From NCBI GenBank assembly GCA_965220385.1, contig OZ244825.1, forward strand, positions 777,142-841,141: a DNA stretch of 64,000 nt, in the 5' to 3' direction. The first letter of the stretch is position 1. Each line of letters begins with the position of its first letter. Positions 5,952-50,150 of this stretch are shown piece after piece. A program made the translations under genes and the position numbers. The notes under the pieces are model-generated. The model made no database searches, was not told the origin of the DNA, and saw nothing but the letters and a program-made list of their open reading frames with translations. The DNA is from Candidatus Poribacteria bacterium. GTDB lineage: Bacteria > Poribacteria > WGA-4E > PCPOR2b.

Positions 5952-7688
5952 GTGAAAAACACTCGATTTCTGCTCTCTGCTCTGGTTGATTTTCCGGATG
6001 ACTGCAATCGTTTGGTCTTTACACCCGGCCTGGTAGAAAACCTGATAGATCGCCTCCACTGGATGGGCGTCCGTCGGGTGTACTGGAACTATTACCAAAA
6101 AGGGATGTGGGACAATTTCGCCGACAACTCGGACGCGACTCGCCAGACCCTTGCGAATTTGGGAGAACCCCTAACTGTTGGCTGCCGTCTGGCGCATGAG
6201 CGAGGGATGGAATTCTACGCCACCATCAAGCCCTACGAAACCGGCGCAAGTCACGCCAATCCCAAAGATAGCCCTGAGATGATGGCTGTGCCCGGCTTGC
6301 CATGTATCGGTGGGGTCTGCAAGGTTGATCCGTGGGTCATGGCGCATCCGGAGATGCGGGTGCGAGGACGCAGCGCGGACGTACCCATGGGACTGGAGAA
6401 CGTCCCAATTGAGCGCATCCAACTCCGCCAAAAAGACATGGCGCCCGTCCGTATCGCACCAGAAAACATCGAAATCTGGACGAGTGACGATAATAACGGC
6501 TACCGAAAGCAGGACCTGACCTTTGCGGTGACCGAATCTGTTGAAACCTGTCCACGGGATGTCTTTGAGCTTGACGGCGACCCAGTCACGTCCCAAGGGG
6601 AATCGGTGCGAGCCCTCAACCTGAGTGGACTGAATCTGCTCGATCCGTTTATTGCGATCACCACCAATTTTGAGGACAGAGATGGCAGCTTCCGCAATAC
6701 CGCGATGGAGATGGTGCGGGCATTTGGTCCCAGCGGTCAGCCGATACCGATTGTCGTCGCCAGTCACAAGGCGGTTTGGAGACCCGTACGAGACTTCCGC
6801 ACAGGTGACCTTGAGTACGATGCAGGACTCGGCGATGCCATCGTTTGTCTTGATGTTAACAACCAACCTGTAGTCCCATCAGATACGTCCGCGAGTGACT
6901 CCAACGACGGGGTGATTGCGGTCGCGAGGGGACGAAACGAGTATTTCTCCGGTTCGCTCTGTGAAGCGTATCCGGAGGTACAATCGTACTGGTTGGGTTG
7001 GGTCGGCGAGTGCATTGCGGCGGGTGTTGACGGATTGGACGTTCGCATCTCCTGCCATAGTAGCTGGACAAATACGCCGGAGATCTACGGTTTCAATGAA
7101 CCTGTGACGGGGGAGTACCAGCGGCGATACGGTATCAATCCGGACGTGGAACCGTACGACCCAGCGTTGGTCGGGGCATTGCGCGGCGAATTCTTCGATC
7201 AGTTCCTGCGCGCAACAAAGCGGCGCCTGTCCGCAGCCGGTAAACGGATGCAGGTTCATGCGGAGATGGAATCGTTCCGGTCCGACGCCTGTCAGGGGCG
7301 CTGGCGCACCCGTCCCGGCAACATCACGTTTAACTGGCGAAGTTGGCTACATACCGGGCTAGCGGACGAAGCCACACTATTTGGACGTGGTTGGATGCCC
7401 GACCAAATGCTCAACGACGCACTCACGTTGGAGATGCTGCGGGAAGCTGCTGATACCGATGTGCCCGTGCATTTGAGCAAAGCGGTCGGACATAGCCGCG
7501 ACGGACGGGTACACGCTGATCTGTTGGAGTATATCTACCGTTTCGGTGGACTCACCGGATACACGCTCTATGAGACCGCGGCGATGTATGATGGGCAGCA
7601 GCTTGGGGCTGACGGTCAGCTACAGTTCCACCCGGGGCTGTGCGAGGGGATACGTGACCGTGTTAGAACTTTGGGGCTCATAGATTAA
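5952..7688 (+). CDS. Hypothetical protein (possibly a glycoside-hydrolase-like TIM barrel)
   Basis: Long ORF with coding-like composition. GTG start after an AAGGAAG Shine-Dalgarno is preferred over the ATG at 5913, which lies inside an intergenic repeat. No confident family assignment. Confidence 0.45.
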   Translation: MKNTRFLLSALVDFPDDCNRLVFTPGLVENLIDRLHWMGVRRVYWNYYQKGMWDNFADNSDATRQTLANLGEPLTVGCRLAHERGMEFYATIKPYETGASHANPKDSPEMMAVPGLPCIGGVCKVDPWVMAHPEMRVRGRSADVPMGLENVPIERIQLRQKDMAPVRIAPENIEIWTSDDNNGYRKQDLTFAVTESVETCPRDVFELDGDPVTSQGESVRALNLSGLNLLDPFIAITTNFEDRDGSFRNTAMEMVRAFGPSGQPIPIVVASHKAVWRPVRDFRTGDLEYDAGLGDAIVCLDVNNQPVVPSDTSASDSNDGVIAVARGRNEYFSGSLCEAYPEVQSYWLGWVGECIAAGVDGLDVRISCHSSWTNTPEIYGFNEPVTGEYQRRYGINPDVEPYDPALVGALRGEFFDQFLRATKRRLSAAGKRMQVHAEMESFRSDACQGRWRTRPGNITFNWRSWLHTGLADEATLFGRGWMPDQMLNDALTLEMLREAADTDVPVHLSKAVGHSRDGRVHADLLEYIYRFGGLTGYTLYETAAMYDGQQLGADGQLQFHPGLCEGIRDRVRTLGLID

Positions 7689-7764: not shown

Positions 7765-8847
7765 ATGATGACCGATCAGAAATCAGCGGACTACCGTGCG
7801 GCGATTATCGGCTGCGGGAGTATCGCTAACAGCCACGCCTCCGGCTATAATCGGACCGAGGCGACCGCGCTGGTCGCGTGTGCAGACACGGTAGAAGCGA
7901 AAGCAGCAGGTTTCGCCGAGCGAAACGCTATTCCTAACTACTACGCCGATTACCGAGCAATGCTTGACGTTGAGAAACCTGACATCGTGAGCGTCTGCAC
8001 GTGGCACCCCCTTCACGCAGAGATGACAATCGCTGCCGCGGCACGGCAGCCGAAGGCTATCCTCTGCGAGAAGCCGATGGCGACCAACCTGGGCGAGGCT
8101 GAAGCGATGATGATTGCCTGCCAGCGGAATCAGGTTAAATTGGTGATCGGTTTCCAGCGTCGATTTCTTGGGGCATGGACGGAAGCGAAAAATCTGATTG
8201 CATCCGGCGCAGTTGGCAAACCGGAACGGATATCACATACCCGTCTGACCGGGCTGCTCAATGCGAGTAGCCACGGGTTTGACTGTATGCGTTATATTCT
8301 GGGCGATCCCAAGGTGGAATGGGTCTTTGGTCAGGTGGAGCGGAAGACCGATCGGTACGAACGCAGTGTGCGTAGCGAGGATTGCGTGGCGGGATTCTTC
8401 CTATTTGAGGGCGGTGTGCAGGCGAGTTTCCAGACAGACGTTGTCCCCGAAAACAAATGGGCGTTTGTGCAGGGGACGGATGGGCTGATCGATTTCGACG
8501 ATGGTTGGATCCGCTACTTCAACGCTGAGACGGCTGGTTGGAAGGACGTAGAGGTTGAGGAAGTGGATGCGGCTGCTGCTCAGGTGGGGGAGTTGGTTGA
8601 GTGGATCGAAGATCGCTGCGTCCATCGCAACGAAGCGGAAAATGGTTTGTGGACGATGCACATGATGATGGGTGCCTACGAATCTGCCCGCTGCCACGAG
8701 GTGGTCCGTTTACCGATGCAAACCCGAGCGAACCCGCTCGATCTGATGGTGGAATCTGGACAGTTGCCGGTGCAATACCCCGGACGCTACGATATTCGCA
8801 GTTTCTTACTTGAGGGCGAAGCGATGAATCTGGAAGAGACTGAGTGA
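7765..8847 (+). CDS. Gfo/Idh/MocA-family NAD(P)-dependent oxidoreductase
   Basis: N-terminal Rossmann AIIGCGSIANSHA and the EKP motif (ILCEKPMA). Confidence 0.8.
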   Translation: MMTDQKSADYRAAIIGCGSIANSHASGYNRTEATALVACADTVEAKAAGFAERNAIPNYYADYRAMLDVEKPDIVSVCTWHPLHAEMTIAAAARQPKAILCEKPMATNLGEAEAMMIACQRNQVKLVIGFQRRFLGAWTEAKNLIASGAVGKPERISHTRLTGLLNASSHGFDCMRYILGDPKVEWVFGQVERKTDRYERSVRSEDCVAGFFLFEGGVQASFQTDVVPENKWAFVQGTDGLIDFDDGWIRYFNAETAGWKDVEVEEVDAAAAQVGELVEWIEDRCVHRNEAENGLWTMHMMMGAYESARCHEVVRLPMQTRANPLDLMVESGQLPVQYPGRYDIRSFLLEGEAMNLEETE

Positions 8848-8959
8848 CGAGGGAGCGGGAAAGTCCTTTGTTCATTATTCGCAGTTTCTTACTTGAGGGC
8901 GAAGCGATGAATCTGGAAGAGACTGAGTGACGAGGGAGCGGGAAAGTCCTTTGTTCATT
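8794..8959. repeat. 83 bp direct tandem duplication (two copies) covering the last 18 codons plus stop and downstream flank of the Gfo/Idh/MocA gene
   Basis: 8794-8876 and 8877-8959 are near-identical (ATTCGCAGTTTCTTACTTGAGGGCGAAGCGATGAATCTGGAAGAGACTGAGTGA...). Confidence 0.8.
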
Positions 8960-9281: not shown

Positions 9282-10160
9282 ATGCACATTATGCGGTCTT
9301 GGATGTTTGTACCGGGACATCAGCAAAGGATGATTGATAAAGCCTACGAACTAAAACTGGATGTAGCGATGTTCGATCTGGAGGACGGGGTGCCGCCCGG
9401 CGAAAAGAATACCGCCCGCGCCATGATGGCGGAAACCCTTGCCCGTCCGTCTGATAGAATGCTCCGTTTTGTGCGTATCCACCCCATCGGAAGCAAGGAG
9501 ATAGAGTCGGATCTATCTGCCGTAATTCGTCCCGGTCTGGACGGACTCACGTTGACGAAGGTGAATTGCCCCGATGGTGTGTCCCAAGTCAGCGCGATTC
9601 TGGATGAGCGAGAGGAGATAGCTGGACTCCAACCGGGGAGTGTTCGTTTGCTCGCCACGATTGAGAGTGCTCGCGGGTTGATTCAGGCACCCGCGATCGC
9701 AGCATCCAGCCCCAGACTTGTCGGGCTGATGTTCGGTGCCGAAGATTTCGCGATGGATCTGGGGCTGTTCAACGTCCGCCAAGGCGAAGCGGGAGATTTC
9801 CTGTACGCCCGCTCTGCACTCGTCGTCGCTGCCGCCAGCGAACGGTTACAAGCGATAGATCGGGTCTATCTCGACATTCGGAATCCCGACGGATTGGAAA
9901 AAGACACACGGTTTGCCCGTGACCTCGGGTTCACCGGCAAAGCCTTAATTCACCCCGCCCAGATTGAGGTCGTAGAAAAAGTTTTCCATCCAACCGATGC
10001 GGAGGTTGAGTATGCTCGACGTGTGGTGGAAGCCTTTGAGGCGGCGGAAGCGGAAGGCGCCGGTGCGGTTGCTGTCGACGGTCAGATGGTCGATCTGCCT
10101 GTGGTGGAGCGTGCCCGGCGTGCCCTGCAGCTTGTATCTGAAAATCCCTCGGATAAATGA
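9282..10160 (+). CDS. HpcH/HpaI aldolase / citrate lyase beta-subunit (CitE)-like (citryl/malyl-CoA lyase family)
   Basis: N-terminus MRSWMFVPGH...LDVAMFDLEDGV is diagnostic of the CitE/HpcH fold. Confidence 0.7.
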   Translation: MHIMRSWMFVPGHQQRMIDKAYELKLDVAMFDLEDGVPPGEKNTARAMMAETLARPSDRMLRFVRIHPIGSKEIESDLSAVIRPGLDGLTLTKVNCPDGVSQVSAILDEREEIAGLQPGSVRLLATIESARGLIQAPAIAASSPRLVGLMFGAEDFAMDLGLFNVRQGEAGDFLYARSALVVAAASERLQAIDRVYLDIRNPDGLEKDTRFARDLGFTGKALIHPAQIEVVEKVFHPTDAEVEYARRVVEAFEAAEAEGAGAVAVDGQMVDLPVVERARRALQLVSENPSDK

Positions 10161-10166
10161 TTGTCA

Positions 10167-10560
10167 AAACGTAATACGTAAAGAAGATGTAACGCAAGGG
10201 GGCAAGGCCGCAAAGGAAAAAAGAGAGCGAAAAGAGAGAAGGCGGGAAAACGAGAAAACGAGAACGGAGGCATTTAGCCCCGGCGGGGCGGCATGTTTGT
10301 AGAATGTGGTATCACCCCACTAACAAAAGCCCCAGCGGGGCGACATGTGATACCGTAAAACGTAATACGTAAAGAAGATGTAACGCAAGGACGCAAAGAA
10401 AAAAAGAGAGCGAAAAGAGAGAAGGCGGGAAAACGAGAAAACGGGAACGGAAGCATTTAGCCCCAGCGGGGTGACATGTTTATAGAATGTGGTATCACCC
10501 CACTAACAAAAGCCCCGGCGGGGCGACATGTGTGTTTTCGCTCCAGCAGGACGATATGTC
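10167..10560. repeat. Two tandem copies (about 200 bp period) of a composite intergenic repeat: purine-rich tract plus MITE-like palindromic unit TTTAGCCCCGGCGGGGCGGCATGTTTGTAGAATGTGGTATCACCCCACTAACAAAAGCCCCAGCGGGGCGACATGTG
   Basis: 10167-10366 and 10367-10560 are nearly identical. The inner unit recurs at 36870-36905, 37048-37130 and 50068-50150. Confidence 0.85.
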
Positions 10561-10622: not shown

Positions 10623-12047
10623 ATGAAGATCCCAAGAGACGATAAGGTTCGTATGCTTAGATTTGCCGTACAGTTTTTGCCAGCGATGATACCTCTTTTT
10701 TTCTCCTTGTATTTCTGGAAAAAGGGGTGGACTGAGCCTGTCATAACCTTTATGTTGCTAAGTATTGGACTGATATTATTAGGGGGCTTTCTGATTCTAG
10801 TCAAGAGGATCATAGGCAACGATAGGTATTTTGTGGTTATAGGTGGCGCTCTGCTTATTCTGATAGGGTTGTATTGCTGGATAGGCAGCGGTAATATCTA
10901 TACGAGCATATTTGCTGTATTGGTCGGTATGGCTGTAATATTAGGGGAGATGTTAAAAGAAAAGCGGTGGCAGATTAGTATCACTGTTGCATTAGTGCTC
11001 GCTGTAGGCACTATCATCTATCTGGAAGAAACCAGTGAAGATAAAGGACATGCTGTCGACAGCGAGGGGGGCGTACAGCAGGAGGTCGTGGATAAAGCAT
11101 CGGCACCCAGCGATGTTCCAAGCGGTGAACCCGCAGTTTCGGCTACATCCGAACAGTCGATGACTGATATGATGAATCGGTTCTTAACTCCTGAGCAACG
11201 TGAAAATCCAACATTCCAGAAAGTAATGAAGGTTATGGAGTCCGATTCATTTCAGAAGCAGATGCAGGAACAAGATCTGCGGACACCGCAAGAATTTATT
11301 GACCTCATGGCAGCACATGGATTAACGGAGTTTGCAGAGATAGATTATGATAAAATCATGGCTGATGCCTATGCCCTTTCCGCACAACAATACGCTACCG
11401 CAAACCCCGGTAAAGACCCCGCGGACGACGATGAGGTAATGGCAAAACGAATCGGAGAAAGCCTGAAGACCGCCGATCCTGTATATGGCATAATGGAAAT
11501 TATGCAGGATCGCGAGATTGCTCTGTGGATGAGTGCCCGTTTCAAAGGGGACCAAGCTGCGATGAGTGAGTGGTTGATGCCGGTGATGAAAGGCGCCGTA
11601 TCGGCTGACTCTGCAAATTCGTCGTCCGCACCAATGGATTTTGAATTCCCCGACGGGTTTTTGTCCGATAGCCCTCCTGACGAACCCACAGAGCAGCTCC
11701 CTTTCGTAGAATCGGAACCCTTACTATCTGACCCCAGCCCGACATCAACGCGGAAAGAGCCTTCCATCCCCGACACCGAAAAGAGTTCCGCAGCAGCACC
11801 AACGGTTGAACCGGAAAAGATTCTCACTGAACTGTCTCCAGAACCGCCTGCACTCCCTACGGACGAGGAACTTGAAACGGCGTTAAGGGAACGATTTTCG
11901 CCTGAGCGTTTCGAGCGGGCAATGACAACGTTGGAGCGGTATGGACCGGAAGAGGGACTTCGCCGCCTTCGAGAGGCTGATCCGGAAATCGCCAAGCAGA
12001 TGGAACGGCGCCGCAGTAGAGAAGGTGGAGAGCAGGATTCCCGATGA
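10623..12047 (+). CDS. Polytopic membrane protein with a long acidic disordered C-terminal region ending in a conserved EEGLRRLREADPE motif
   Basis: N-terminal hydrophobic helices; the C-terminal RYGPEEGLRRLREADPEIAKQ matches the C-terminus of the 13418 protein (YGTEEGLRRLRVSDPDAARQ). Confidence 0.5.
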   Translation: MKIPRDDKVRMLRFAVQFLPAMIPLFFSLYFWKKGWTEPVITFMLLSIGLILLGGFLILVKRIIGNDRYFVVIGGALLILIGLYCWIGSGNIYTSIFAVLVGMAVILGEMLKEKRWQISITVALVLAVGTIIYLEETSEDKGHAVDSEGGVQQEVVDKASAPSDVPSGEPAVSATSEQSMTDMMNRFLTPEQRENPTFQKVMKVMESDSFQKQMQEQDLRTPQEFIDLMAAHGLTEFAEIDYDKIMADAYALSAQQYATANPGKDPADDDEVMAKRIGESLKTADPVYGIMEIMQDREIALWMSARFKGDQAAMSEWLMPVMKGAVSADSANSSSAPMDFEFPDGFLSDSPPDEPTEQLPFVESEPLLSDPSPTSTRKEPSIPDTEKSSAAAPTVEPEKILTELSPEPPALPTDEELETALRERFSPERFERAMTTLERYGPEEGLRRLREADPEIAKQMERRRSREGGEQDSR

Positions 12048-12454: not shown

Positions 12455-12620
12455 TCTTCAATCAATACAGCTAGCGGTATCATACTCTTGTTTACGGGCA
12501 TAATATCGCTTTTTTGTGCTCACAAAACGCCACCCTTCGATTGCCTATGATGTGAGTCGGTTAAAACGATTCAAAACCTCCGCATCTTTTTCGTGGAATA
12601 TGGTAAATCAATAAGGGACT
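12455..12620 (+). promoter_or_regulatory. U element copy 1: hairpin/T-run terminator followed by a conserved about 100 bp module ending in an extended -10-like TGGTAAAT (degenerate copy)
   Basis: Aligns to the copies at 14436, 18122 and 20062: AGCGGTATCATAC...ATGATACCGCTTTTTTTGTGCTCAC...CAAAACCTCCCCATCTTTTTATCGGAATATGGTATAATCACGCA. Confidence 0.6.
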
Positions 12621-12667: not shown

Positions 12668-12820
12668 TGTTAGTAAAAGTTACTAACATTAGTAACATTT
12701 GCTAGCAATAGTTACTAATAACCGAGTTATTTCCTTCAACGACTTTTTAGACATTTCGCGCTTGAAGCCTGATGCCCACTGGGTTTGTGCGATTTTCGTT
12801 TCTTTTGGCATGTTAATTGC
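12668..12820 (+). promoter_or_regulatory. Sigma-54 promoter unit 1: UAS of TTAGTAA/TTACTAA palindromes (12668-12720) plus -24/-12 element TGGCATGTTAATTGCT (12805-12820)
   Basis: GG and GC spaced exactly as in the TGGCAC-N5-TTGC consensus. UAS palindromes sit about 100 bp upstream, the classic enhancer-binding-protein geometry. The unit is repeated at 16371-16523 and 18313-18451. Confidence 0.7.
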
Positions 12821-12995
12821 TTCTTATGGGTCTGTGGTTGAACACTTCAACCGTAACGCGTAGCGGAAAAGCATAGATTTTCAATGATTAGCTTATTCTC
12901 AAAGTGGGTGTGCTAAGACATTTTGTGAAGTTGAAAATCTTTCCTTTCTGGCCAGAATGCTAAACGCATTCTTAACAATTCAAAGGAAAAAGCAC

Positions 12996-13322
12996 ATGAA
13001 AAACTTAGGGGTTCTCTTCTGCGCCATTTCACTCGTCATGATGATCGGCCTAATGGTCGTATTTTTTACGGAACCCGCTGAAGCAGGAGCAGACGAGAAG
13101 ATAAGGGTAAAAAATGTTGTAAAATATTACGATGACTTTGACAATTACTGCCCTAACCTTTCATACACTAGAATCACCCTTGAACCAGTTGTATACAATG
13201 GATATGGTCACTACTATAACTACCATATAATGGGTAACTCGGGACACACTAGTCACAGTTATCAGATCGTGTCATGGGTCACCATTCATACAACTTTTAC
13301 CGTTGCTAGTTGTAATACTTAA
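12996..13322 (+). CDS. Small secreted/membrane-anchored protein (N-terminal signal/TM; Tyr/His/Asn-rich C-terminal half, 2 Cys)
   Basis: MKNLGVLFCAISLVMMIGLMVVFF signal-like N-terminus; first gene downstream of sigma-54 promoter 1. Confidence 0.45.
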   Translation: MKNLGVLFCAISLVMMIGLMVVFFTEPAEAGADEKIRVKNVVKYYDDFDNYCPNLSYTRITLEPVVYNGYGHYYNYHIMGNSGHTSHSYQIVSWVTIHTTFTVASCNT

Positions 13323-13417
13323 GCATCGTTAGAAAACTAGGCAGCCCAGCCTCTACTCGTGTCTCCGTAGGGGCTGGCAAAAAAACAGTTAAGCGATTCA
13401 GAAGGGACGGTATTTTG

Positions 13418-14422
13418 ATGCGAAAGGTTGTTCTATTGATCTCCGTGATAGTTATTCTAACAGCAGGCTGGATTTTCTACCTAAACCGGGAAAAAAAGAA
13501 CTTTATAGAGAATCTACCGCAATCCCCTGCGGTTGTTAACCAACCTATTAACAGTTCCTCTTCATCAGTAAATGAAAAGGAGGATTCTAGCTACTTTGTT
13601 GAAGTGGATGGGAAGAAATTCATTCCTGATGGCCGCCTGCATAAGACACTTCCACAGGAGCAGACCGCCTCCGCAGAAAAAACGTCTTCAGAAACGCCCA
13701 CTCCAGACGAGAAAGCAGATTTTGTGCGCGACCAATGGATTCAAATGTTTGGAGACATTCCACAGGTTCATGCCGCATCTGAGTACATGAGAAAAATATA
13801 CAAACGGGAACGTATGACAATTGATGAAGAGATTGCTGGCTTAGAAGCCTCACACTACCTATTTCCAGAGGGTGGGCATGGACTAATGTTGGCAATACGA
13901 AAGACTCAGAAAGCACAGGGGCTCGACGAGGACGACTTTGAGATCGTGTATGAGGAGGATTGGGAGAATGTAAGGCCTCCGCCGGGTTATAAGGAATATC
14001 ATTTTGGGAATGTACCTGAGCATCTCCGGTCCGATACCCCTGCACCTGATAGGATTTTTTCAGAAAGCATTGATGGAGATATAGACTTTCCTCCTGCTCG
14101 TTCTGAGGGGACTCCTGTAATGCCGGAACCTAAGACCTCAGTCACGTCTGACCATGTTCACCATGGAGATAGGCATGTACACGAACCGCCCACCCTCCAA
14201 CCGCCTGCACCGACAACTGCTAAAGGTGTTGAAGCGAACGGCTGGGAGGGGTTATCGTCTAAACAACGGGAGCAGGCGAAAGCGTTCTTTGACGAATATG
14301 GCACAGAGGAAGGGCTGCGGCGGTTGAGGGTGTCTGATCCTGACGCTGCGCGTCAATTTGGGCAGGAACGGCAGAAACCGCCTATCCCTTCCGAACCAAA
14401 TGATGAATCTTCTACGCAGTAG
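13418..14422 (+). CDS. Single-pass membrane-anchored protein with a disordered Pro/Glu-rich region and C-terminal EEGLRRLR...DP motif (paralogous at the C-terminus to the 10623 protein)
   Basis: N-terminal TM VVLLISVIVILTAGWIFYL; C-terminal FFDEYGTEEGLRRLRVSDPDAARQF. Confidence 0.5.
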   Translation: MRKVVLLISVIVILTAGWIFYLNREKKNFIENLPQSPAVVNQPINSSSSSVNEKEDSSYFVEVDGKKFIPDGRLHKTLPQEQTASAEKTSSETPTPDEKADFVRDQWIQMFGDIPQVHAASEYMRKIYKRERMTIDEEIAGLEASHYLFPEGGHGLMLAIRKTQKAQGLDEDDFEIVYEEDWENVRPPPGYKEYHFGNVPEHLRSDTPAPDRIFSESIDGDIDFPPARSEGTPVMPEPKTSVTSDHVHHGDRHVHEPPTLQPPAPTTAKGVEANGWEGLSSKQREQAKAFFDEYGTEEGLRRLRVSDPDAARQFGQERQKPPIPSEPNDESSTQ

Positions 14423-14435
14423 GGGCGGGCTTAAA

Positions 14436-14585
14436 TCCATACAACAGCGGTATCATACCCTGGTTCACGGGCATGATACCGCTTTTTTTGTGCTCACAGC
14501 GTGGTGTTAGGTAGCCGAAACGCCTCAAAACCTCCCCACCTTTTCATAGGAATATGGTATAATCACGCAGGTTATTATTTGAGAG
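14436..14585 (+). promoter_or_regulatory. U element copy 2 (terminator hairpin AGCGGTATCATACCC...GGCATGATACCGCTTTTTTT plus conserved module with TGGTATAAT)
   Basis: Best-conserved copy; perfect 11 bp stem followed by T7. Confidence 0.65.
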
Positions 14586-14881: not shown

Positions 14882-15853
14882 CTACGAAATTCCCAACTTT
14901 TCCATCTTATAGCGGAAAGTGGAGTAAGGGATGCCGAGATTTTTTGCGGCTTGAGTGCGATTCCAATGGGTTTCTTCAAGTGCCTGTGTGATCTGATCGT
15001 GCTCGCTCTCGACTGCCGATTCGTCAGGTTGTGACGGCAGTTCTTCCAATGCCTCTCCTTGAATATCAAGATGCTCGATTCCTATCAACGAGATCTTGGG
15101 TGGACAGAGAACAGCGGTGCGCTCAACGATATTTCGCAGTTCACGGATGTTGCCGGGGTATTGATAATCCAGAAGGGACGATTTAGCCCCGTCTGAAAAG
15201 CCGTCGAAGCTGCGCCCTCTTCTGGCGGTGTATGCCGCTAGGAAATGGTCCACCAACGGCAGGATATCTTCTGTTCTTTCCCTAAGCGGTGTGAGGTGGA
15301 TAGGAAAGAGGTTGAGCCGATGGAATAGATCACTGCGGAACTGTCCAGATTTGACAAGTTGTGGCGGATCTCTGTTGAATGCACTGATAATATGTGCTTG
15401 AAAGGAGATCTCCTCGGTGCCGCCAAGCCGTCTCAGCGTCCGGGTGTCGAGAACCCGCAGCAACTTAGCTTGTATGTCGAGTGGGAGGTCAGCAATTTCA
15501 TCCAGCAGAAGCGTGCCGCTATCTGCTATCTCAAAGTAGCCGGGTTTATCCGTCGTTGCATCGGTGTATGCCCCTTTGACGTGGCCAAAGAGTTCGCTTT
15601 CGACCAACGACTCTGGCAATGCCGAACAGTTGACAGCGACAAACGGCTGCTCTTCCGAAGACCCTTGAAAATGAATTGCCCGTGCGACCACCTCTTTTCC
15701 TGTGCCCGTTTCGCCGGTGAGGAGAATCGTATCAACCTTTGCTGCGACCGCCTGCCGGATGCGTTCTCGTACCTCTTGCGTAGCTGAACTATCTCCCACA
15801 AGGAATCGGTTTTGTATCCGCGGATTGTGATAGCTCGTAGATCGATTATCCAT
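14882..15853 (-). CDS. Sigma-54-dependent transcriptional activator (bacterial enhancer-binding protein) with no N-terminal regulatory domain (PspF-like architecture: AAA+ domain plus C-terminal HTH)
   Basis: GETGTGKE Walker A, ESELFGHVKGAYTDA (GAFTGA-type sigma-54 contact loop), RELRN (sensor II) and C-terminal HTH NLGIPYSTFRYKMEKLGI. The AAA+ domain starts about 40 residues from the N-terminus, so no receiver/GAF/PAS domain. Start chosen at MDNRST after an AGAGGG Shine-Dalgarno. Confidence 0.8.
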   Translation of the reverse strand: MDNRSTSYHNPRIQNRFLVGDSSATQEVRERIRQAVAAKVDTILLTGETGTGKEVVARAIHFQGSSEEQPFVAVNCSALPESLVESELFGHVKGAYTDATTDKPGYFEIADSGTLLLDEIADLPLDIQAKLLRVLDTRTLRRLGGTEEISFQAHIISAFNRDPPQLVKSGQFRSDLFHRLNLFPIHLTPLRERTEDILPLVDHFLAAYTARRGRSFDGFSDGAKSSLLDYQYPGNIRELRNIVERTAVLCPPKISLIGIEHLDIQGEALEELPSQPDESAVESEHDQITQALEETHWNRTQAAKNLGIPYSTFRYKMEKLGIS

Positions 15854-15961
15854 TTGTCCCTCTCTTCTCGATAAACGCGGCTTGACTGTTTTATCCTCAA
15901 AAGAGTTGATGTATCGCATGGTCAGCTACTTTCGAGGTTCTCCACTGTTCCCATTTCCTTT

Positions 15962-16224
15962 CTATACTTAGTAAAGGATACAGGAGGACACAGACAGGGG
16001 GCAAATTTGTTTTCTTTAGTTTGAAACAAATAGTTTCAAGTTAAAAAAAATAAATTGATTCGTCTTAAAAAATAGTTCAAGCAGCTGCCGAATTTTTGTC
16101 AAGCATGGGCGAGGTGACCTCGCCCCTACAGTTGGCTGCGTAAGTTCTATACTCAAAAGGATACAAGAGGACGCAGACAGGATGCAAATTTAAAATCTTT
16201 AGAGTTAAACCAACAGTTTAACTC
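15962..16224. promoter_or_regulatory. Two copies (about 185 bp apart) of an about 80 bp element in the divergent promoter region of the bEBP gene, each carrying a perfect palindrome (TTGAAAC-N5-GTTTCAA; GAGTTAAAC-N5-GTTTAACTC)
   Basis: 15962-16040 and 16147-16224 align (CTATACT.A..AAGGATACA.GAGGAC.CAGACAGG..GCAAATTT...). A GGCGAGGTGACCTCGCC hairpin at 16108-16125 lies between them. Confidence 0.6.
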
Positions 16225-16370
16225 CTCCAAAAATAACTCGAATGGGGTGTGGGACACCCTGTGTTGAACGCTCGCTGAGGTCGACAAGGCGGTAGGATCC
16301 CATAAAATTTATCACAGGGAGTTCGCAGCGATGAAGGTCTTTGACTCCCTCTTGGGACTTATGCAGAAAA

Positions 16371-16523
16371 GTTAGCAATAGTTGCTAACATTAGCAATAG
16401 TTGCTAAGCAACAGTTGCTAATAATTGGGTTAACCGCTTCGGCGACTTTTTGCATATTTCGCCTTGAAAGCCTGATGTCCGCTGGGTTTGTGCGATTTTC
16501 GTTGCTTTTGGCATGATAATTGC
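16371..16523 (+). promoter_or_regulatory. Sigma-54 promoter unit 2: UAS TTAGCAATAGTTGCTAACATTAGCAATAGTTGCTAAGCAACAGTTGCTAA (16371-16430) plus -24/-12 TGGCATGATAATTGC (16509-16523)
   Basis: Consensus spacing exact; three TTAGCAA-N3-TTGCTAA palindromes about 90-140 bp upstream. Confidence 0.75.
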
Positions 16524-16656
16524 CCCTTATGAGTTTGTGGTTGAACCTTTCAACCATGATAAAGGATTTTCGATAGGTAGCGATTTGAATTATGAGTACA
16601 CAAGCATTGTATTGTGCAAATCGTAACACCACACACTTAATGAGAGGAGAGATACG

Positions 16657-17421
16657 ATGAAAACCATATTTGACGTGCTTCGTCACCCGCTGGTTATCGG
16701 TGCACTCGTATTGAGCATCCTCATTGTGGTAGGTGTGTATTTCGGAAGCCATTGGTACTATGGTGATGTTGAACCAGTTGAAATGCCGGAGGTTTCTGCA
16801 CCTGCTCCGCCCCTGCCTAAAAATCTTTCCGTCTCTGAAGTTGATTTGAGTGGTCTGGATGGGGAATCATCCCCACCGCAAACGGAATCAGAGCCTACAG
16901 TTTCGTCTGTGGAAGGCGAGTCGGTCGATGATTTCTTGGCAGAGCTATCGGATGAGGAGATGGCTCTGTTGACAGCTGAGGTGGTGGAACCTCAACGGGT
17001 TTCTCCCTTTGGCTTTGGTCCATATCCCCAAGTACCTTCAGATTTTCCCGAAGATCCCATTTGGGAAGAAGATATGGAAGCAAATATCTCACAATTTGGC
17101 AGCGAAGCGATGAAGGAAGCAGAATTGATGGATCGGGTTTTAATTCAACTCTGGAATCAGGGACATCGTGCTACTTCTGCGTCAAAGCACAGTAACGGGC
17201 TCGTCTATCCATCATTTCCCAACACGGTCTTTGTCCGATGGGACTACATAGAGGAAGAAGATGGGACAATTACTAAATATGCAAGGAGAATATCTAGTGG
17301 TGCGGAGGTATCAGATAGTGACCTTAATGATTTAGGGGAAGGGATTATTCCGCCCGGCATAAAGGTGCTTGACTATGATTCAGATGGAATAAATCCCTAC
17401 ACTTTTTTGAATCTTAACTAA
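16657..17421 (+). CDS. Single-pass membrane-anchored protein, family A (N-terminal TM, Pro/Ser/Glu-rich linker, conserved about 140 aa C-terminal domain ending PYTFLNLN)
   Basis: 77% paralog of the 18587 protein; GAGGAGAG Shine-Dalgarno; no recognisable domain. Confidence 0.6.
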   Translation: MKTIFDVLRHPLVIGALVLSILIVVGVYFGSHWYYGDVEPVEMPEVSAPAPPLPKNLSVSEVDLSGLDGESSPPQTESEPTVSSVEGESVDDFLAELSDEEMALLTAEVVEPQRVSPFGFGPYPQVPSDFPEDPIWEEDMEANISQFGSEAMKEAELMDRVLIQLWNQGHRATSASKHSNGLVYPSFPNTVFVRWDYIEEEDGTITKYARRISSGAEVSDSDLNDLGEGIIPPGIKVLDYDSDGINPYTFLNLN

Positions 17422-17435
17422 TAAGGAGAAATAAG

Positions 17436-17804
17436 ATGCGTAAACATTTTTTGGGTGTCTTGATAATCTGCTTTTTGTCTGTTTTTTCCGTGCTTTCTTT
17501 TGCAAAAAAATCCGGGCCGCTAACAGCTGAAGCTTCTATATACAAAAAACGAACACAGACAGTAGCCAAGGCGAAGGTTCAGGCGACAGTTGCAGCAAGG
17601 CATGGGGCGTGGGCAATATCCGCTGTCTCAGGGAATAACTCTGATGGCGATGCTGGACACTATCGATACGGACTATCTACCCAAGTTGTACACCCAAAAG
17701 ATTACACCTCACGCGCGTCAAATGCGAGGGCTAGCGCGTGGATTTCTGGACACGATCGGCATGGCAAGGCTTGGTTTGTACAAGATTCAAAACCTGACAA
17801 CTAG
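17436..17804 (+). CDS. Small secreted protein, family B (Sec signal peptide; mature about 95 aa with ...ASAWISGHDRHG... motif)
   Basis: MRKHFLGVLIICFLSVFSVLSFA signal peptide; TAAGGAG Shine-Dalgarno; homologous to the 19369 protein (shared NSDxD...TS.A.A.(A/S)WI(S/T)G(H/Y)(D/N)RH). Confidence 0.55.
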   Translation: MRKHFLGVLIICFLSVFSVLSFAKKSGPLTAEASIYKKRTQTVAKAKVQATVAARHGAWAISAVSGNNSDGDAGHYRYGLSTQVVHPKDYTSRASNARASAWISGHDRHGKAWFVQDSKPDN

Positions 17805-18121: not shown

Positions 18122-18265
18122 TTCAATTAACACAACTAGCGGTATCATATCTTTTTTAGGGTTATGATACCGCTCTTTTGTGCTCACGGCGTGGCGTGAG
18201 TCAGCTAAAGCACCTCAAAACCTCCCCATCTTTTTATCGGAATACGGTATAATTACCAGGCTGCT
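18122..18265 (+). promoter_or_regulatory. U element copy 3
   Basis: AGCGGTATCATATC...GTTATGATACCGCTCTTTTGTGCTCACGGCGTGGCGTGAGTCAGCTAAAGCACCTCAAAACCTCCCCATCTTTTTATCGGAATACGGTATAAT. Confidence 0.65.
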
Positions 18266-18312: not shown

Positions 18313-18451
18313 GTTAGTAATTGTTGCTAACATTAGCAACAGTTGCTAATAATTGGGTTAACCGCTTCGGCGACTTTTTGCATATTTCGCCTTGAAAGCC
18401 TGATGTCCGCTGGGTTTGTGCGATTTTCGTTTCTTTTGGCATGTTAATTGC
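18313..18451 (+). promoter_or_regulatory. Sigma-54 promoter unit 3: UAS palindromes (18313-18350) plus -24/-12 TGGCATGTTAATTGC (18437-18451)
   Basis: About 95% identical to unit 2 over roughly 280 bp, including the long leader. Confidence 0.75.
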
Positions 18452-18586
18452 TTCTTATGAGTCTGTGGTTGAACCCTTCAACCATGATAAAGGATTTTCG
18501 ATAGGTAGCGATTTGAATTATAAGTACACAAGCACTGTACCGTGTAATTTCTAACACTGTACACTTAAATGAGAGGAGAGCGTACG

Positions 18587-19357
18587 ATGAAAACGGTACT
18601 TGACCTGCTTCGTCACCCGTTGGTTCTCGGTGCACTCGTATTGAGCATCCTCATTGTGGTTGGTGTGTATTTCGGAAGCCATTGGTACTATGGTGATGTT
18701 GAACCAGTTGAGATACCGGAGATCTCCGCTCCTACTCCCGCCCTGCCTAAAAAATCTGCCTCCTCTGAAGTTGATTTGAGTGGCTTACAAGGGGAATCAT
18801 TGACACTGGAAACGGAATCAACGCCTACAGCACCGTCTATGGCAGTCGAGTCGGTCGATGATTTCTTAGCAGAGCTATCGGCTGAAGAGAAAGTACTGTT
18901 GACGGCGGAAGTGGTGGAAGATACGCAGCCGGTTTCCCCATTCGGTTTTGGTCCATATCCCCAAGTACCTTTAGACTTTCCCAGAGATCCCATCTGGGAA
19001 GCAGTCGAGATGTACGAAAAAATCAATCAACATGGACGTGGTATGATGAAGGCAATAGAATTGATGGATCGGGTTGTAATAAAACTCTGGAATCAGGGGC
19101 ATAGAGCAAGCTCTGCGTCAATGAGTAAAGGACGCGTCTATCCGGGATTTCCCAACACGGTTTATGTCCGATGGAGTTACATTGAAGAACCAGATGGGAC
19201 AATTACTCGATATGCAGGACGAAAAACGAGTGGGCCGGACATCCCCGAAAGTGTCTTTGATGCTTTAAGTGAGGGGATTGTCCCACCCGGCATAACCGTA
19301 CTTGATCATGATGCTGATGGAATAGATCCTTACACTTTTTTGAATCTTAATCAATAA
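18587..19357 (+). CDS. Single-pass membrane-anchored protein, family A (paralog of the 16657 protein)
   Basis: MKTVLDLLRHPLVLGALVLSILIVVGVYFGSHWYYGDVEPVE... is near-identical at the N-terminus and conserved in the C-terminal domain. Confidence 0.6.
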   Translation: MKTVLDLLRHPLVLGALVLSILIVVGVYFGSHWYYGDVEPVEIPEISAPTPALPKKSASSEVDLSGLQGESLTLETESTPTAPSMAVESVDDFLAELSAEEKVLLTAEVVEDTQPVSPFGFGPYPQVPLDFPRDPIWEAVEMYEKINQHGRGMMKAIELMDRVVIKLWNQGHRASSASMSKGRVYPGFPNTVYVRWSYIEEPDGTITRYAGRKTSGPDIPESVFDALSEGIVPPGITVLDHDADGIDPYTFLNLNQ

Positions 19358-19368
19358 GGAGAAATAAA

Positions 19369-19767
19369 ATGCGTATACGTTTTTGGGTCGGTTCGATAAT
19401 CTGCCTTGGTTCAATAATCTGTCTTTTGGTTACTTTTTCCGTACTTACCTCGATAAGCCACGCGGCAGGTTGTGACGAGTCAGAGTGTGACGAAGGGGTC
19501 TGTGCTAGTGCGAGGATAAGTGGTGGGGCAGAGCTAAAAGCAAGAGGGGTCGTGCGTGCTCCGAACAACTGTTGGGGCGGCTGGGGGATAAACGTGCGCG
19601 CTGGAACTAACAGTGACAGCGATTCAGACTATTACACAGGTGGGACAAGGAACGATCTGGAGGTTAAGCAGCATACGAGCCAAGCGAAAGCAACCTCGTG
19701 GATTACTGGGTATAATAGGCATGACGAGTCTTATTATGCCAATGCCTGTGATGAGTCTGGTGGTTGA
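19369..19767 (+). CDS. Small secreted Cys-rich protein, family B (paralog of the 17436 protein)
   Basis: Signal peptide, 6 Cys, conserved ...ATSWITGYNRHDES... motif; identical TAAGGAGAAATAAAATG ribosome-binding-site context to the 17436 gene. Confidence 0.55.
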   Translation: MRIRFWVGSIICLGSIICLLVTFSVLTSISHAAGCDESECDEGVCASARISGGAELKARGVVRAPNNCWGGWGINVRAGTNSDSDSDYYTGGTRNDLEVKQHTSQAKATSWITGYNRHDESYYANACDESGG

Positions 19768-20061: not shown

Positions 20062-20212
20062 CTAAATCAATACAACCCGCGGCATCATACTCTTTTTTCA
20101 GGGGATATGATACCGCTTTTTTTGTGCTCACAGCGTGGCGTGAGTCGGCTAAAGTGCTTCAAAACCTCCCCATCTTTTTATCGGAATATGGTATAATCAC
20201 GCAAGTTGTTAT
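20062..20212 (+). promoter_or_regulatory. U element copy 4, immediately upstream of the sucC-like gene
   Basis: CGCGGCATCATAC...GATATGATACCGCTTTTTTTGTGCTCACAGCGTGGCGTGAGTCGGCTAAAGTGCTTCAAAACCTCCCCATCTTTTTATCGGAATATGGTATAATCACGCA. Confidence 0.65.
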
Positions 20213-50067: not shown

Positions 50068-50150
50068 CGCTTCATTTAGCCCCAGTGGGGCGACATGTTT
50101 ATAGCACACGGATAAACAAATACCCTAAAGCCCCAGAGGGGCGACATGTG
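50068..50150. repeat. MITE-like repeat unit TTTAGCCCCAGTGGGGCGACATGTTTATAGCACACGGATAAACAAATACCCTAAAGCCCCAGAGGGGCGACATGTG
   Basis: Same family as 10263-10540 and 37048-37130. Confidence 0.8.

Follow-up and report, generated by a model that had tools for sequence, protein, structure and literature searches.

A sensor-less sigma-54 activator beside an array of self-equipped sigma-54 cassettes in a hypervariable island of Poribacteria

Introduction

Sigma-54 activators (bacterial enhancer-binding proteins [bEBPs]) that lack a sensor domain of their own are known from PspF and from HrpR/HrpS of Pseudomonas syringae. Here, we describe a gene of this architecture in a 64-kb stretch of Poribacteria DNA (hereafter, the window; all window searches covered this stretch, and positions are those of the whole stretch), together with the sigma-54 promoters, enhancer-like dyads, and orphan gene cassettes that surround it. 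PspF consists of an AAA+ domain and a helix-turn-helix (HTH) domain; its gene diverges from the sigma-54 operon that it controls, and the enhancer lies between the two. PspA, an anti-activator encoded separately, docks at Trp56 of PspF and keeps it inactive. HrpR and HrpS activate host-interaction and secreted-protein genes as a co-dependent tandem pair that forms a hetero-hexamer and is under negative control by HrpV. Removal of the receiver from activators of the NtrC1/DctD class gives constitutive activators. Natural NorR has a GAF domain, the L1-loop motif GAFTGA, and sites of the form GT-N7-AC. In Escherichia coli NorR, constitutive activity is full with the substitutions G266D and G266N and partial with F264Y, all of which bypass repression by the GAF domain (Bush et al. 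2010, PMC2941729); the mutants retain enhancer-dependent hexamers on three sites and open-complex formation, with ATPase activity reduced in G266D/N (PMC2941729). Natural Desulfovibrio vulgaris bEBPs with GAFTDA (DVU2106) and GAYTDA (DVU2275) have predicted sigma-54 regulons and are listed as single-component regulators with sensory domains (PMC4641369).

The architecture of the poribacterial protein is therefore already known (PspF, HrpR/HrpS), as are its loop variants (NorR mutants, Desulfovibrio activators, the latter serving unrelated regulons in unrelated organisms). New are the presence of a receiver in only some orthologues at a single locus, a bypass-type loop fixed throughout a clade, and the link with sigma-54 cassettes that are each self-contained, encode extracytoplasmic orphan proteins, and make up a hypervariable array in an uncultivated phylum of sponge symbionts. 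No paper connecting Poribacteria with sigma-54 was found in the literature searched. We lean towards reading the protein, from its sequence and genomic setting, as a locus-specific, constitutively competent activator of a small cassette regulon that would be controlled through its own synthesis.

The activator gene

The longest open reading frame (ORF) spans 14882–15919 on the minus strand and encodes 345 amino acids (aa). Its features are as follows.

14882–15853, minus strand: the activator gene (323 aa and a stop codon; no receiver), with Met23 of the 345-aa ORF as its likely start
15854–15919, minus strand: in-frame 22-codon upstream extension, probably an untranslated leader
15296–15802, minus strand: AAA+ sigma-54 interaction domain PF00158 (Sigma54_activat; Pfam, residues 40–208 of the 345-aa ORF, E = 3.7e-62)
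Residues 213–285 of the 345-aa ORF, minus strand: AAA_lid_14 (Pfam)
15557–15574, minus strand: L1-loop motif GAYTDA, a variant of GAFTGA (residues 116–121 of the 345-aa ORF)
14894–15010, minus strand: C-terminal Fis-type HTH, PF02954 (HTH_8; Pfam, residues 304–342, E = 9.9e-14)

A reading of the sequence without database searches (the sequence-only reading) had described a complete sigma-54 activator with a variant GAFTGA loop and no sensor domain. Both parts of this description stand: the Pfam search of the 345-aa ORF returned the AAA+, lid, and HTH domains and nothing N-terminal of the AAA+ domain, and the ATPase motifs are intact (Walker A GETGTGKE, Walker B LLLDEI, RRLGG, SAFNRD, and GNIRELRN, with R-finger, sensor I, and sensor II). 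By its AAA+ domain with these motifs, its HTH_8 domain, and the dyads and −24/−12 promoters nearby, the protein is predicted to be a bEBP.

The same reading had named a cryptic N-terminal regulatory domain as a possible objection, should the true start lie farther upstream. This candidate was rejected: the frame is closed by an in-frame stop three codons upstream of the ATG at 15919, and tblastn of three receiver domains against 15700–16700 gave noise only, with no receiver relic. The frame does extend to 15919, as had been noted, but translation probably begins at Met23 (ATG at 15853), because a purine-rich Shine–Dalgarno (SD) sequence, AGAGGG, lies 5–10 nucleotides (nt) before that codon, the public NCBI/ENA annotation of the identical sequence has 323 aa, and homologues are mostly 323–327 aa long. 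Neighbouring genes use the same SD, and inspection upstream of the ATG at 15919 revealed none.

This is the sole bEBP gene found by tblastn in the window. Its best match in the reference genome collection, a Candidatus Poribacteria metagenome-assembled genome, has 81% identity. The gene is under purifying selection (dN/dS 0.21–0.28 against orthologues, with dS up to 0.67), and the recognition region of the HTH, PYSTFR(Y/F)KM, is conserved across all branches of the family.

Enhancer–promoter modules and their association with the activator family

Exactly three perfect TGGCA-N6-TTGC sites occur in the window, all on the plus strand and each preceded by a cluster of dyads.

12670–12718, plus strand: three dyads, TTAGTAA/TTACTAA in type, forming enhancer cluster 1 (dyad scan)
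12806–12820, plus strand: sigma-54 promoter 1, exact −24/−12
16372–16421, no strand assigned: enhancer cluster 2, three 17-bp dyads TTAGCAA-N3-TTGCTAA at −137, −118, and −104 from the promoter
16509–16523, plus strand: sigma-54 promoter 2 (TGGCATGATAATTGC), exact −24/−12, divergent from the activator gene
16539–16555, plus strand: leader hairpin GGTTGAACCTTTCAACC downstream of promoter 2, conserved and also present at 12836 and 18467
18314–18349, plus strand: enhancer cluster 3, two dyads (dyad scan)
18437–18451, plus strand: sigma-54 promoter 3, exact −24/−12

One-mismatch promoter matches are at chance level (18 seen versus 15.4 expected), and the dyad pattern TTAG(C/T)AA-N3-TT(G/A)CTAA has 13 matches against 0.10 expected by chance in the window, all confined to the three clusters. 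The palindromes that had been noticed upstream of the three promoters are thus present at all of them, with the qualification that the third cluster has two dyads instead of three: the dyads begin 137, 118, and 104 nt upstream of the promoter in the first two clusters and 123 and 104 nt upstream in the third. Within the window, dyads and exact promoters are found only beside the activator gene. About 16 nt past each −12 element stands a hairpin or palindrome, GGTTGAAC-N-CTTCAACC (12836–12852, 16539–16555, and 18467–18483), perhaps an operator or a structure in the leader RNA, which is kept in most modules of other loci; from dyads to hairpin, a stretch of about 200 nt constitutes one conserved module. 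The 7-N3-7 geometry of the dyads is also that of NtrC sites. A sigma-54 promoter for the activator gene itself was considered and rejected, the minus strand upstream of the gene having no −24/−12 match.

For comparison, 12 related loci (L-numbers below) in four genomic contexts were retrieved. They contain 19 exact −24/−12 promoters of the module type, and dyads stand at the fixed distance in 19/19; one further exact match, in L027, has no dyads. The module of three dyads and a −24/−12 promoter accompanies the activator family at every poribacterial locus examined. At L028, where the activator has 72% identity and the genomic context is different, all three dyads of both modules are displaced by 10–11 nt, i.e. 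one helical turn. At the loci of a receiver-bearing paralogue, L025 (3074–3190) and L031 (1655–1790), an orphan gene of 70–79 aa, among genes for Radical SAM, LPG synthase, glycosyltransferases, and PMT_2, is preceded by a single sigma-54 module that contains the same dyads, one or two in number. L029 encodes a 62%-identical homologue in an operon with a CHASE histidine kinase; at 2080–2225, dyads of the window's type (TTAGTAAC-N-GTTACTAA) are accompanied by a degenerate −24/−12 element, AGGTATAGCGATTGC, exactly 104 nt downstream of the third. A run of direct repeats of about 60 nt follows that element at 2395–2590. Two scans of JGI metagenome contigs for the enhancer–promoter module gave no matches.

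Because the module accompanies the activator family in 12 loci and four contexts, the dyads are very probably the family's cognate enhancer, as the sequence-only reading had suggested in naming them candidate HTH sites. The near-invariant recognition region of the HTH across branches that have these dyads in common is strong associative evidence for recognition, an association and not a proof.

Probable descent from a response regulator

Among solved structures, Aquifex NtrC1 (PDB 4l4u/1ny5) is the best match (245 bits), and several homologues have the receiver that the window protein lacks. At the same syntenic locus, the orthologue in L026 and L027 is 444 aa long and has a receiver at its N-terminus and the canonical GAFTGA loop. 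The orthologue receiver retains the phospho-acceptor Asp; its acidic pair DD is changed to GN, its conserved Lys to Gln/Arg, and its linker is shortened. In the distant homologue P0114, the receiver is canonical, the linker is long and helical, and a CHASE histidine kinase is encoded next to it. The window gene and the receiver-bearing genes are homologous in DNA from the Met23 codon onwards, upstream of which the receiver-less loci have a different sequence in common. The sensor-less state is, on this comparative evidence, probably a derived truncation of a response regulator whose receiver had degenerated, receiver loss being the parsimonious direction because all outgroups have receiver and GAFTGA. 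The window protein itself is not a two-component response regulator of the NtrC type, having neither a receiver and linker nor an adjacent cognate kinase; HisKA/HATPase genes are listed in the gene tables of the retrieved loci for L029 only. The 444-aa proteins include paralogues as well as orthologues, and the paralogue receiver is likewise degenerate (Lys to Gln), with no adjacent kinase.

The L1-loop variant

The loop was surveyed in 120 homologues and the window protein. Position 5 is D or N in 87/90 short forms with a readable motif, 29 of which have Y at position 3; receiver-bearing orthologues have GAFTGA. GAYTDA is not unprecedented and probably not disabling: both changes are compatible with activation in NorR, and Desulfovibrio bEBPs carry the same variants. 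The F-to-Y and G-to-D changes correspond to the NorR bypass substitutions and, by this analogy, suggest a constitutively active activator that would be controlled through its own expression. GAYTDA likewise fits an activator freed from control by an N-terminal domain.

In the NCBIfam search, NorR was one of the best matches, at 293.9 bits (cut-off 476), and the three dyads parallel the three NorR sites required for hexamer assembly and ATPase activity. Like NorR without its GAF domain, the activator described here is predicted to be active independently of any N-terminal domain. It differs in naturally having no GAF domain and in probably descending from a protein whose N-terminal domain was a receiver, not GAF; its variant loop is the wild type of a whole clade.

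The duplicated upstream element

Between the activator gene and enhancer cluster 2 lie two copies of an element with perfect palindromes.

15962–16058, no strand assigned: proximal element copy of about 97 nt, palindrome TTGAAAC-N5-GTTTCAA at 16021–16039 (self-comparison and conservation)
16145–16241, no strand assigned: distal element copy of about 97 nt, palindrome GAGTTAAAC-N5-GTTTAACTC at 16202–16224 (self-comparison and conservation)
16107–16150, no strand assigned: GC hairpin and short repeat (reverse complement of ACTTACGCAGCCAACTGTAGG) between the copies, resembling a small insertion sequence

The sequence-only reading had proposed a duplicated 80-bp element with palindromic operators, perhaps for autoregulation or for a second regulator. 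The two copies with perfect palindromes are real and conserved, each about 97 nt long; their 64-nt cores (15973–16036 and 16156–16219) are 80% identical and 183 nt apart, and neither the element nor either palindrome has another occurrence in the window. Duplication is not general: one copy is found in L001, L022, L024, and L028, two in the window and L020, and three in L030. In total, the element lies upstream of receiver-less alleles in seven loci, is disrupted in one (L023), and is absent from the three receiver-bearing loci searched (L025–L027). The proximal position (palindrome at −184 to −186 from the start) is the same in L022, L024, and L030; the distal palindrome variant recurs in L020, L030, and, with one mismatch, L028. 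The two recurring palindrome types, (GT)TTGAAAC-N5-GTTTCAA(AC) and GAGTTAAAC-N5-GTTTAACTC, differ by two symmetric, compensatory pairs of changes, and the dyad symmetry itself is therefore under selection.

Autoregulation through these palindromes is unlikely because their half-sites, TTGAAAC and GTTAAAC, are unlike the enhancer half-site TTAGCAA. The pattern suggests an operator for a second regulator or an RNA leader hairpin instead. RNAalifold pairs a CU-rich tract of the element with the SD and start codon in 4/4 sequences, and the window leader folds better than shuffled sequences (z = −3.3); we retain this anti-SD leader-RNA model as an alternative only.

Short repeats (GGACTTAC/GGACTTGC...CAGCCAACTGTAGG) with GC-rich hairpins occur at 16107–16150 of the window, at 9700–9890 of L020, and at 7205–7290 and 7385–7660 of L030. 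The TATAG junction beside the element is also the site of related and longer inserts in L020, L001, L023, and L030. They look like a small mobile or recombinogenic family, and with such insertion-like sequences at the junction, the changes in element copy number may be partly accidental.

The cassette island

Each sigma-54 promoter precedes one or two orphan genes.

12957–14422, plus strand: cassette 1, genes for a secreted protein of 121 aa (probably 108 aa) and an anchored protein of 335 aa, convergent with the 3′ end of the activator gene
14446–14559, plus strand: intrinsic terminator and conserved 54-nt block closing cassette 1, between it and the activator gene
16657–17804, plus strand: cassette 2, ORFs for a 254-aa signal-anchored orphan and a 122-aa secreted orphan
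18569–19767, plus strand: cassette 3, a duplicate of cassette 2 with paralogous proteins of 262 aa and 132 aa (71% and 32% identity)

All six proteins have one N-terminal hydrophobic segment with no more than 10 residues ahead of it, the pattern of a signal peptide or signal anchor and of extracytoplasmic products. Pfam searches of the cassette proteins returned no PspA_IM30 match and no match of any family. The family of about 255 aa (16657–17421 and 18569–19357) is represented by 198 homologues, with several paralogues in a genome, and matches no Pfam domain; a source name accompanies one match, which is poribacterial. Its members are modelled (AF2) with a transmembrane helix, a disordered acidic linker, and a C-terminal domain at pLDDT about 90, for which Foldseek found no fold match in the PDB.

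Cassette ends are repeated as well. A near-identical intrinsic terminator, AGCGGTATCAT...ATGATACCGCTTTTTT, stands at 12473–12605, 14446–14559, 18138–18249, and 20078–20193, and a conserved 54-nt block (...CAAAACCTCCSCAYCTTTT...) follows each cassette terminator. These repeated boundaries (5′ module, terminator, and 54-nt block) could mediate recombination. In other Poribacteria, the island lies between HpcH_HpaI/GFO_IDH genes and sucCD. The orthologous activators at the syntenic position are accompanied by the same orphan cassette families, in varying number and kind and sometimes with transposases (L020 has a single cassette of the cassette 2/3 kind); with cassette content differing in this way, the island is hypervariable. 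Compared between loci, the cassette families are shuffled, and none is constantly adjacent to the activator, whose conserved neighbours are metabolic enzymes.

Upstream of the first module, a cassette protein of 474 aa is encoded by a gene without a sigma-54 promoter. Its C-terminal residues, about 60 in number (11841–12020), are shared with the 335-aa protein (14198–14377) at 40% identity and include YG(P/T)EEGLRRLR, a tail that recurs on different cassette proteins at other loci. Upstream of the 474-aa gene, 10160–10540 holds a tandem repeat of about 183–190 nt, 94–95% identical, with GC hairpins (GCCCCGCTGGGGC); a related 51-nt piece lies at 50127.

Proposed mode of action and alternatives

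The regulon would consist of interchangeable cassettes, each bringing its own regulatory module: three 7-N3-7 dyads (about −137, −118, and −104), a −24/−12 promoter, a leader hairpin, one or two orphan genes, and a terminator. Fis-type HTH dimers would occupy the dyads, and three dimers would nucleate an AAA+ hexamer that remodels sigma-54 holoenzyme about 100 bp downstream. We picture the activator as descending from an NtrC/NtrC1-type response regulator whose receiver first decayed and later gave way to a new 5′ region, with the junction exactly at the present start codon. After assembly on the enhancer, it would most likely be constitutively active, because it has no sensor domain and carries two NorR-type bypass substitutions in the L1 loop. 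Regulation would act on its synthesis through the upstream element found only at receiver-less alleles, the palindrome serving either as an operator for another regulator or as a hairpin of a leader RNA in which the CU-rich tract could pair with the ribosome-binding site.

Several observations weigh against parts of this proposal. In a neighbour-joining tree with 100 bootstraps, monophyly of the receiver-bearing orthologues has 37% support and that of the short forms 0%, so that the tree fixes neither the number nor the direction of receiver gains and losses. Loop position 5 is D, N, or S in a receiver-bearing paralogue clade as well, so that substitution and loss of the receiver do not go together. 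The leader fold shows hardly any covariation (two pairs among four close sequences), the element of L028 abuts the start codon with no intervening leader (a misfit with the anti-SD idea), and a consensus scan of the element for a sigma-70-type promoter gave no convincing match, the overall count being at chance level. The paralogue, with its near-identical HTH and the same dyads at its locus, could also drive the cassettes.

The first alternative, which we consider unlikely, is control of the PspF/HrpS type, in which the activator is made constitutively, a separately encoded anti-activator holds its AAA+ domain, and an envelope or host signal releases it. The two-domain architecture is that of PspF, the AAA+ domains are 43% identical, the gene is divergent from a sigma-54 operon with the enhancer between them, as in pspF–pspA, and the regulon products are predicted envelope or secreted proteins. 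The sequence-only reading had called the activator PspF-like and looked to the anchored cassette proteins for a PspA-like partner. Beyond architecture, the likeness fails. Scores against the PspF equivalogs are far below the cut-offs (TIGR02974, 265 versus 443.55 bits; PRK11608, 235.5 versus 529 bits), the solved structures of NtrC1, NtrC, FleQ, and ZraR match better than PspF, and Trp56 of PspF (sequence verified against the PDB) aligns with Glu. The lineage is a receiver-containing one, and a further difference from PspF is that the enhancer lies clear of the upstream element nearest to the activator gene. Nor do the cassettes offer a partner: they hold no pspA-like gene or other recognizable family, the residues preceding the hydrophobic segment are so few that almost no cytoplasmic part would reach the AAA+ domain, and the genes constantly beside the activator are those for metabolic enzymes. 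Any such partner would therefore have to be encoded elsewhere in the genome.

Rather less probable again is an enhancer shared with the receiver-bearing paralogue, either in mixed hexamers, as in HrpR/HrpS, or by competition for the dyads, with a signal entering through the paralogue's receiver. The complete genome OZ242036.1 does encode both a short form and a 440-aa paralogue, the HTH recognition regions are nearly identical, and the sigma-54 module at the paralogue locus uses the same dyads; the degenerate receiver of the paralogue and the lack of a kinase beside it speak against a signal by this route, and the cassettes are always beside the orthologous gene and never beside the paralogue. 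HrpR/HrpS are comparable as sensor-less activators of host-interaction and secreted-protein genes, but the window holds a single bEBP gene with no HrpV-like neighbour.

Least likely, and in our view very improbable, is a crippled remnant that binds DNA without activating sigma-54, whether inert or a passive, repressing occupant of the enhancer: GAFTGA is normally highly conserved, a G-to-D change in Dickeya VfmH has been discussed as a possible cause of lost sigma-54 contact (PMC10714721), and NorR G266D/N have the reduced ATPase activity mentioned above, but the D/N substitution is kept in nearly all short homologues although these share only 72–93% identity, dN/dS is about 0.2–0.3 with every ATPase motif intact, perfect and strongly conserved −24/−12 promoters persist beside the gene, and NorR G266D/N do activate transcription (PMC2941729).

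Returning to the constitutively competent activator, we tentatively extend that reading to a 'plug-in' regulon, in which self-equipped cassettes would recombine into the array and come at once under one dedicated activator. On this view the activator became signal-independent by a NorR-like route, through loss of a degenerate sensor domain and gain of the GAFTGA-to-GA(F/Y)T(D/N)A bypass substitutions, with control relocated to the new 5′ element. If so, the array would serve to vary the exterior of the symbiont towards its host. The cassette architecture suggests a simple way of keeping a changing set of surface or secreted orphan proteins under one switch, in line with a general connection that has been proposed between sigma-54 and the cell exterior (PMC3162934). 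Orthologues with and without a receiver, and a NorR bypass loop as wild type, make the family a natural system for studying how intramolecular control of AAA+ activators is evaded, lost, or replaced, and the conserved three-dyad module is a directly testable enhancer for an uncultivated phylum.

Other features of the window

Rfam and tRNA scans of the window gave no matches. At 8793–8958, an 83-bp unit occurs twice in tandem with 100% identity. Two pairs of paralogous large ORFs, 24706–26484/26521–28398 and 32076–33914/37211–38935, have 82% and 69% DNA identity, respectively, over about 270–300 nt at their starts. Finally, a 1168-aa ORF at 41744–45250 contains 66-nt (22-residue) tandem repeats at 43054–43565, probably eukaryote-like leucine-rich repeats, a type that has been reported from Poribacteria.

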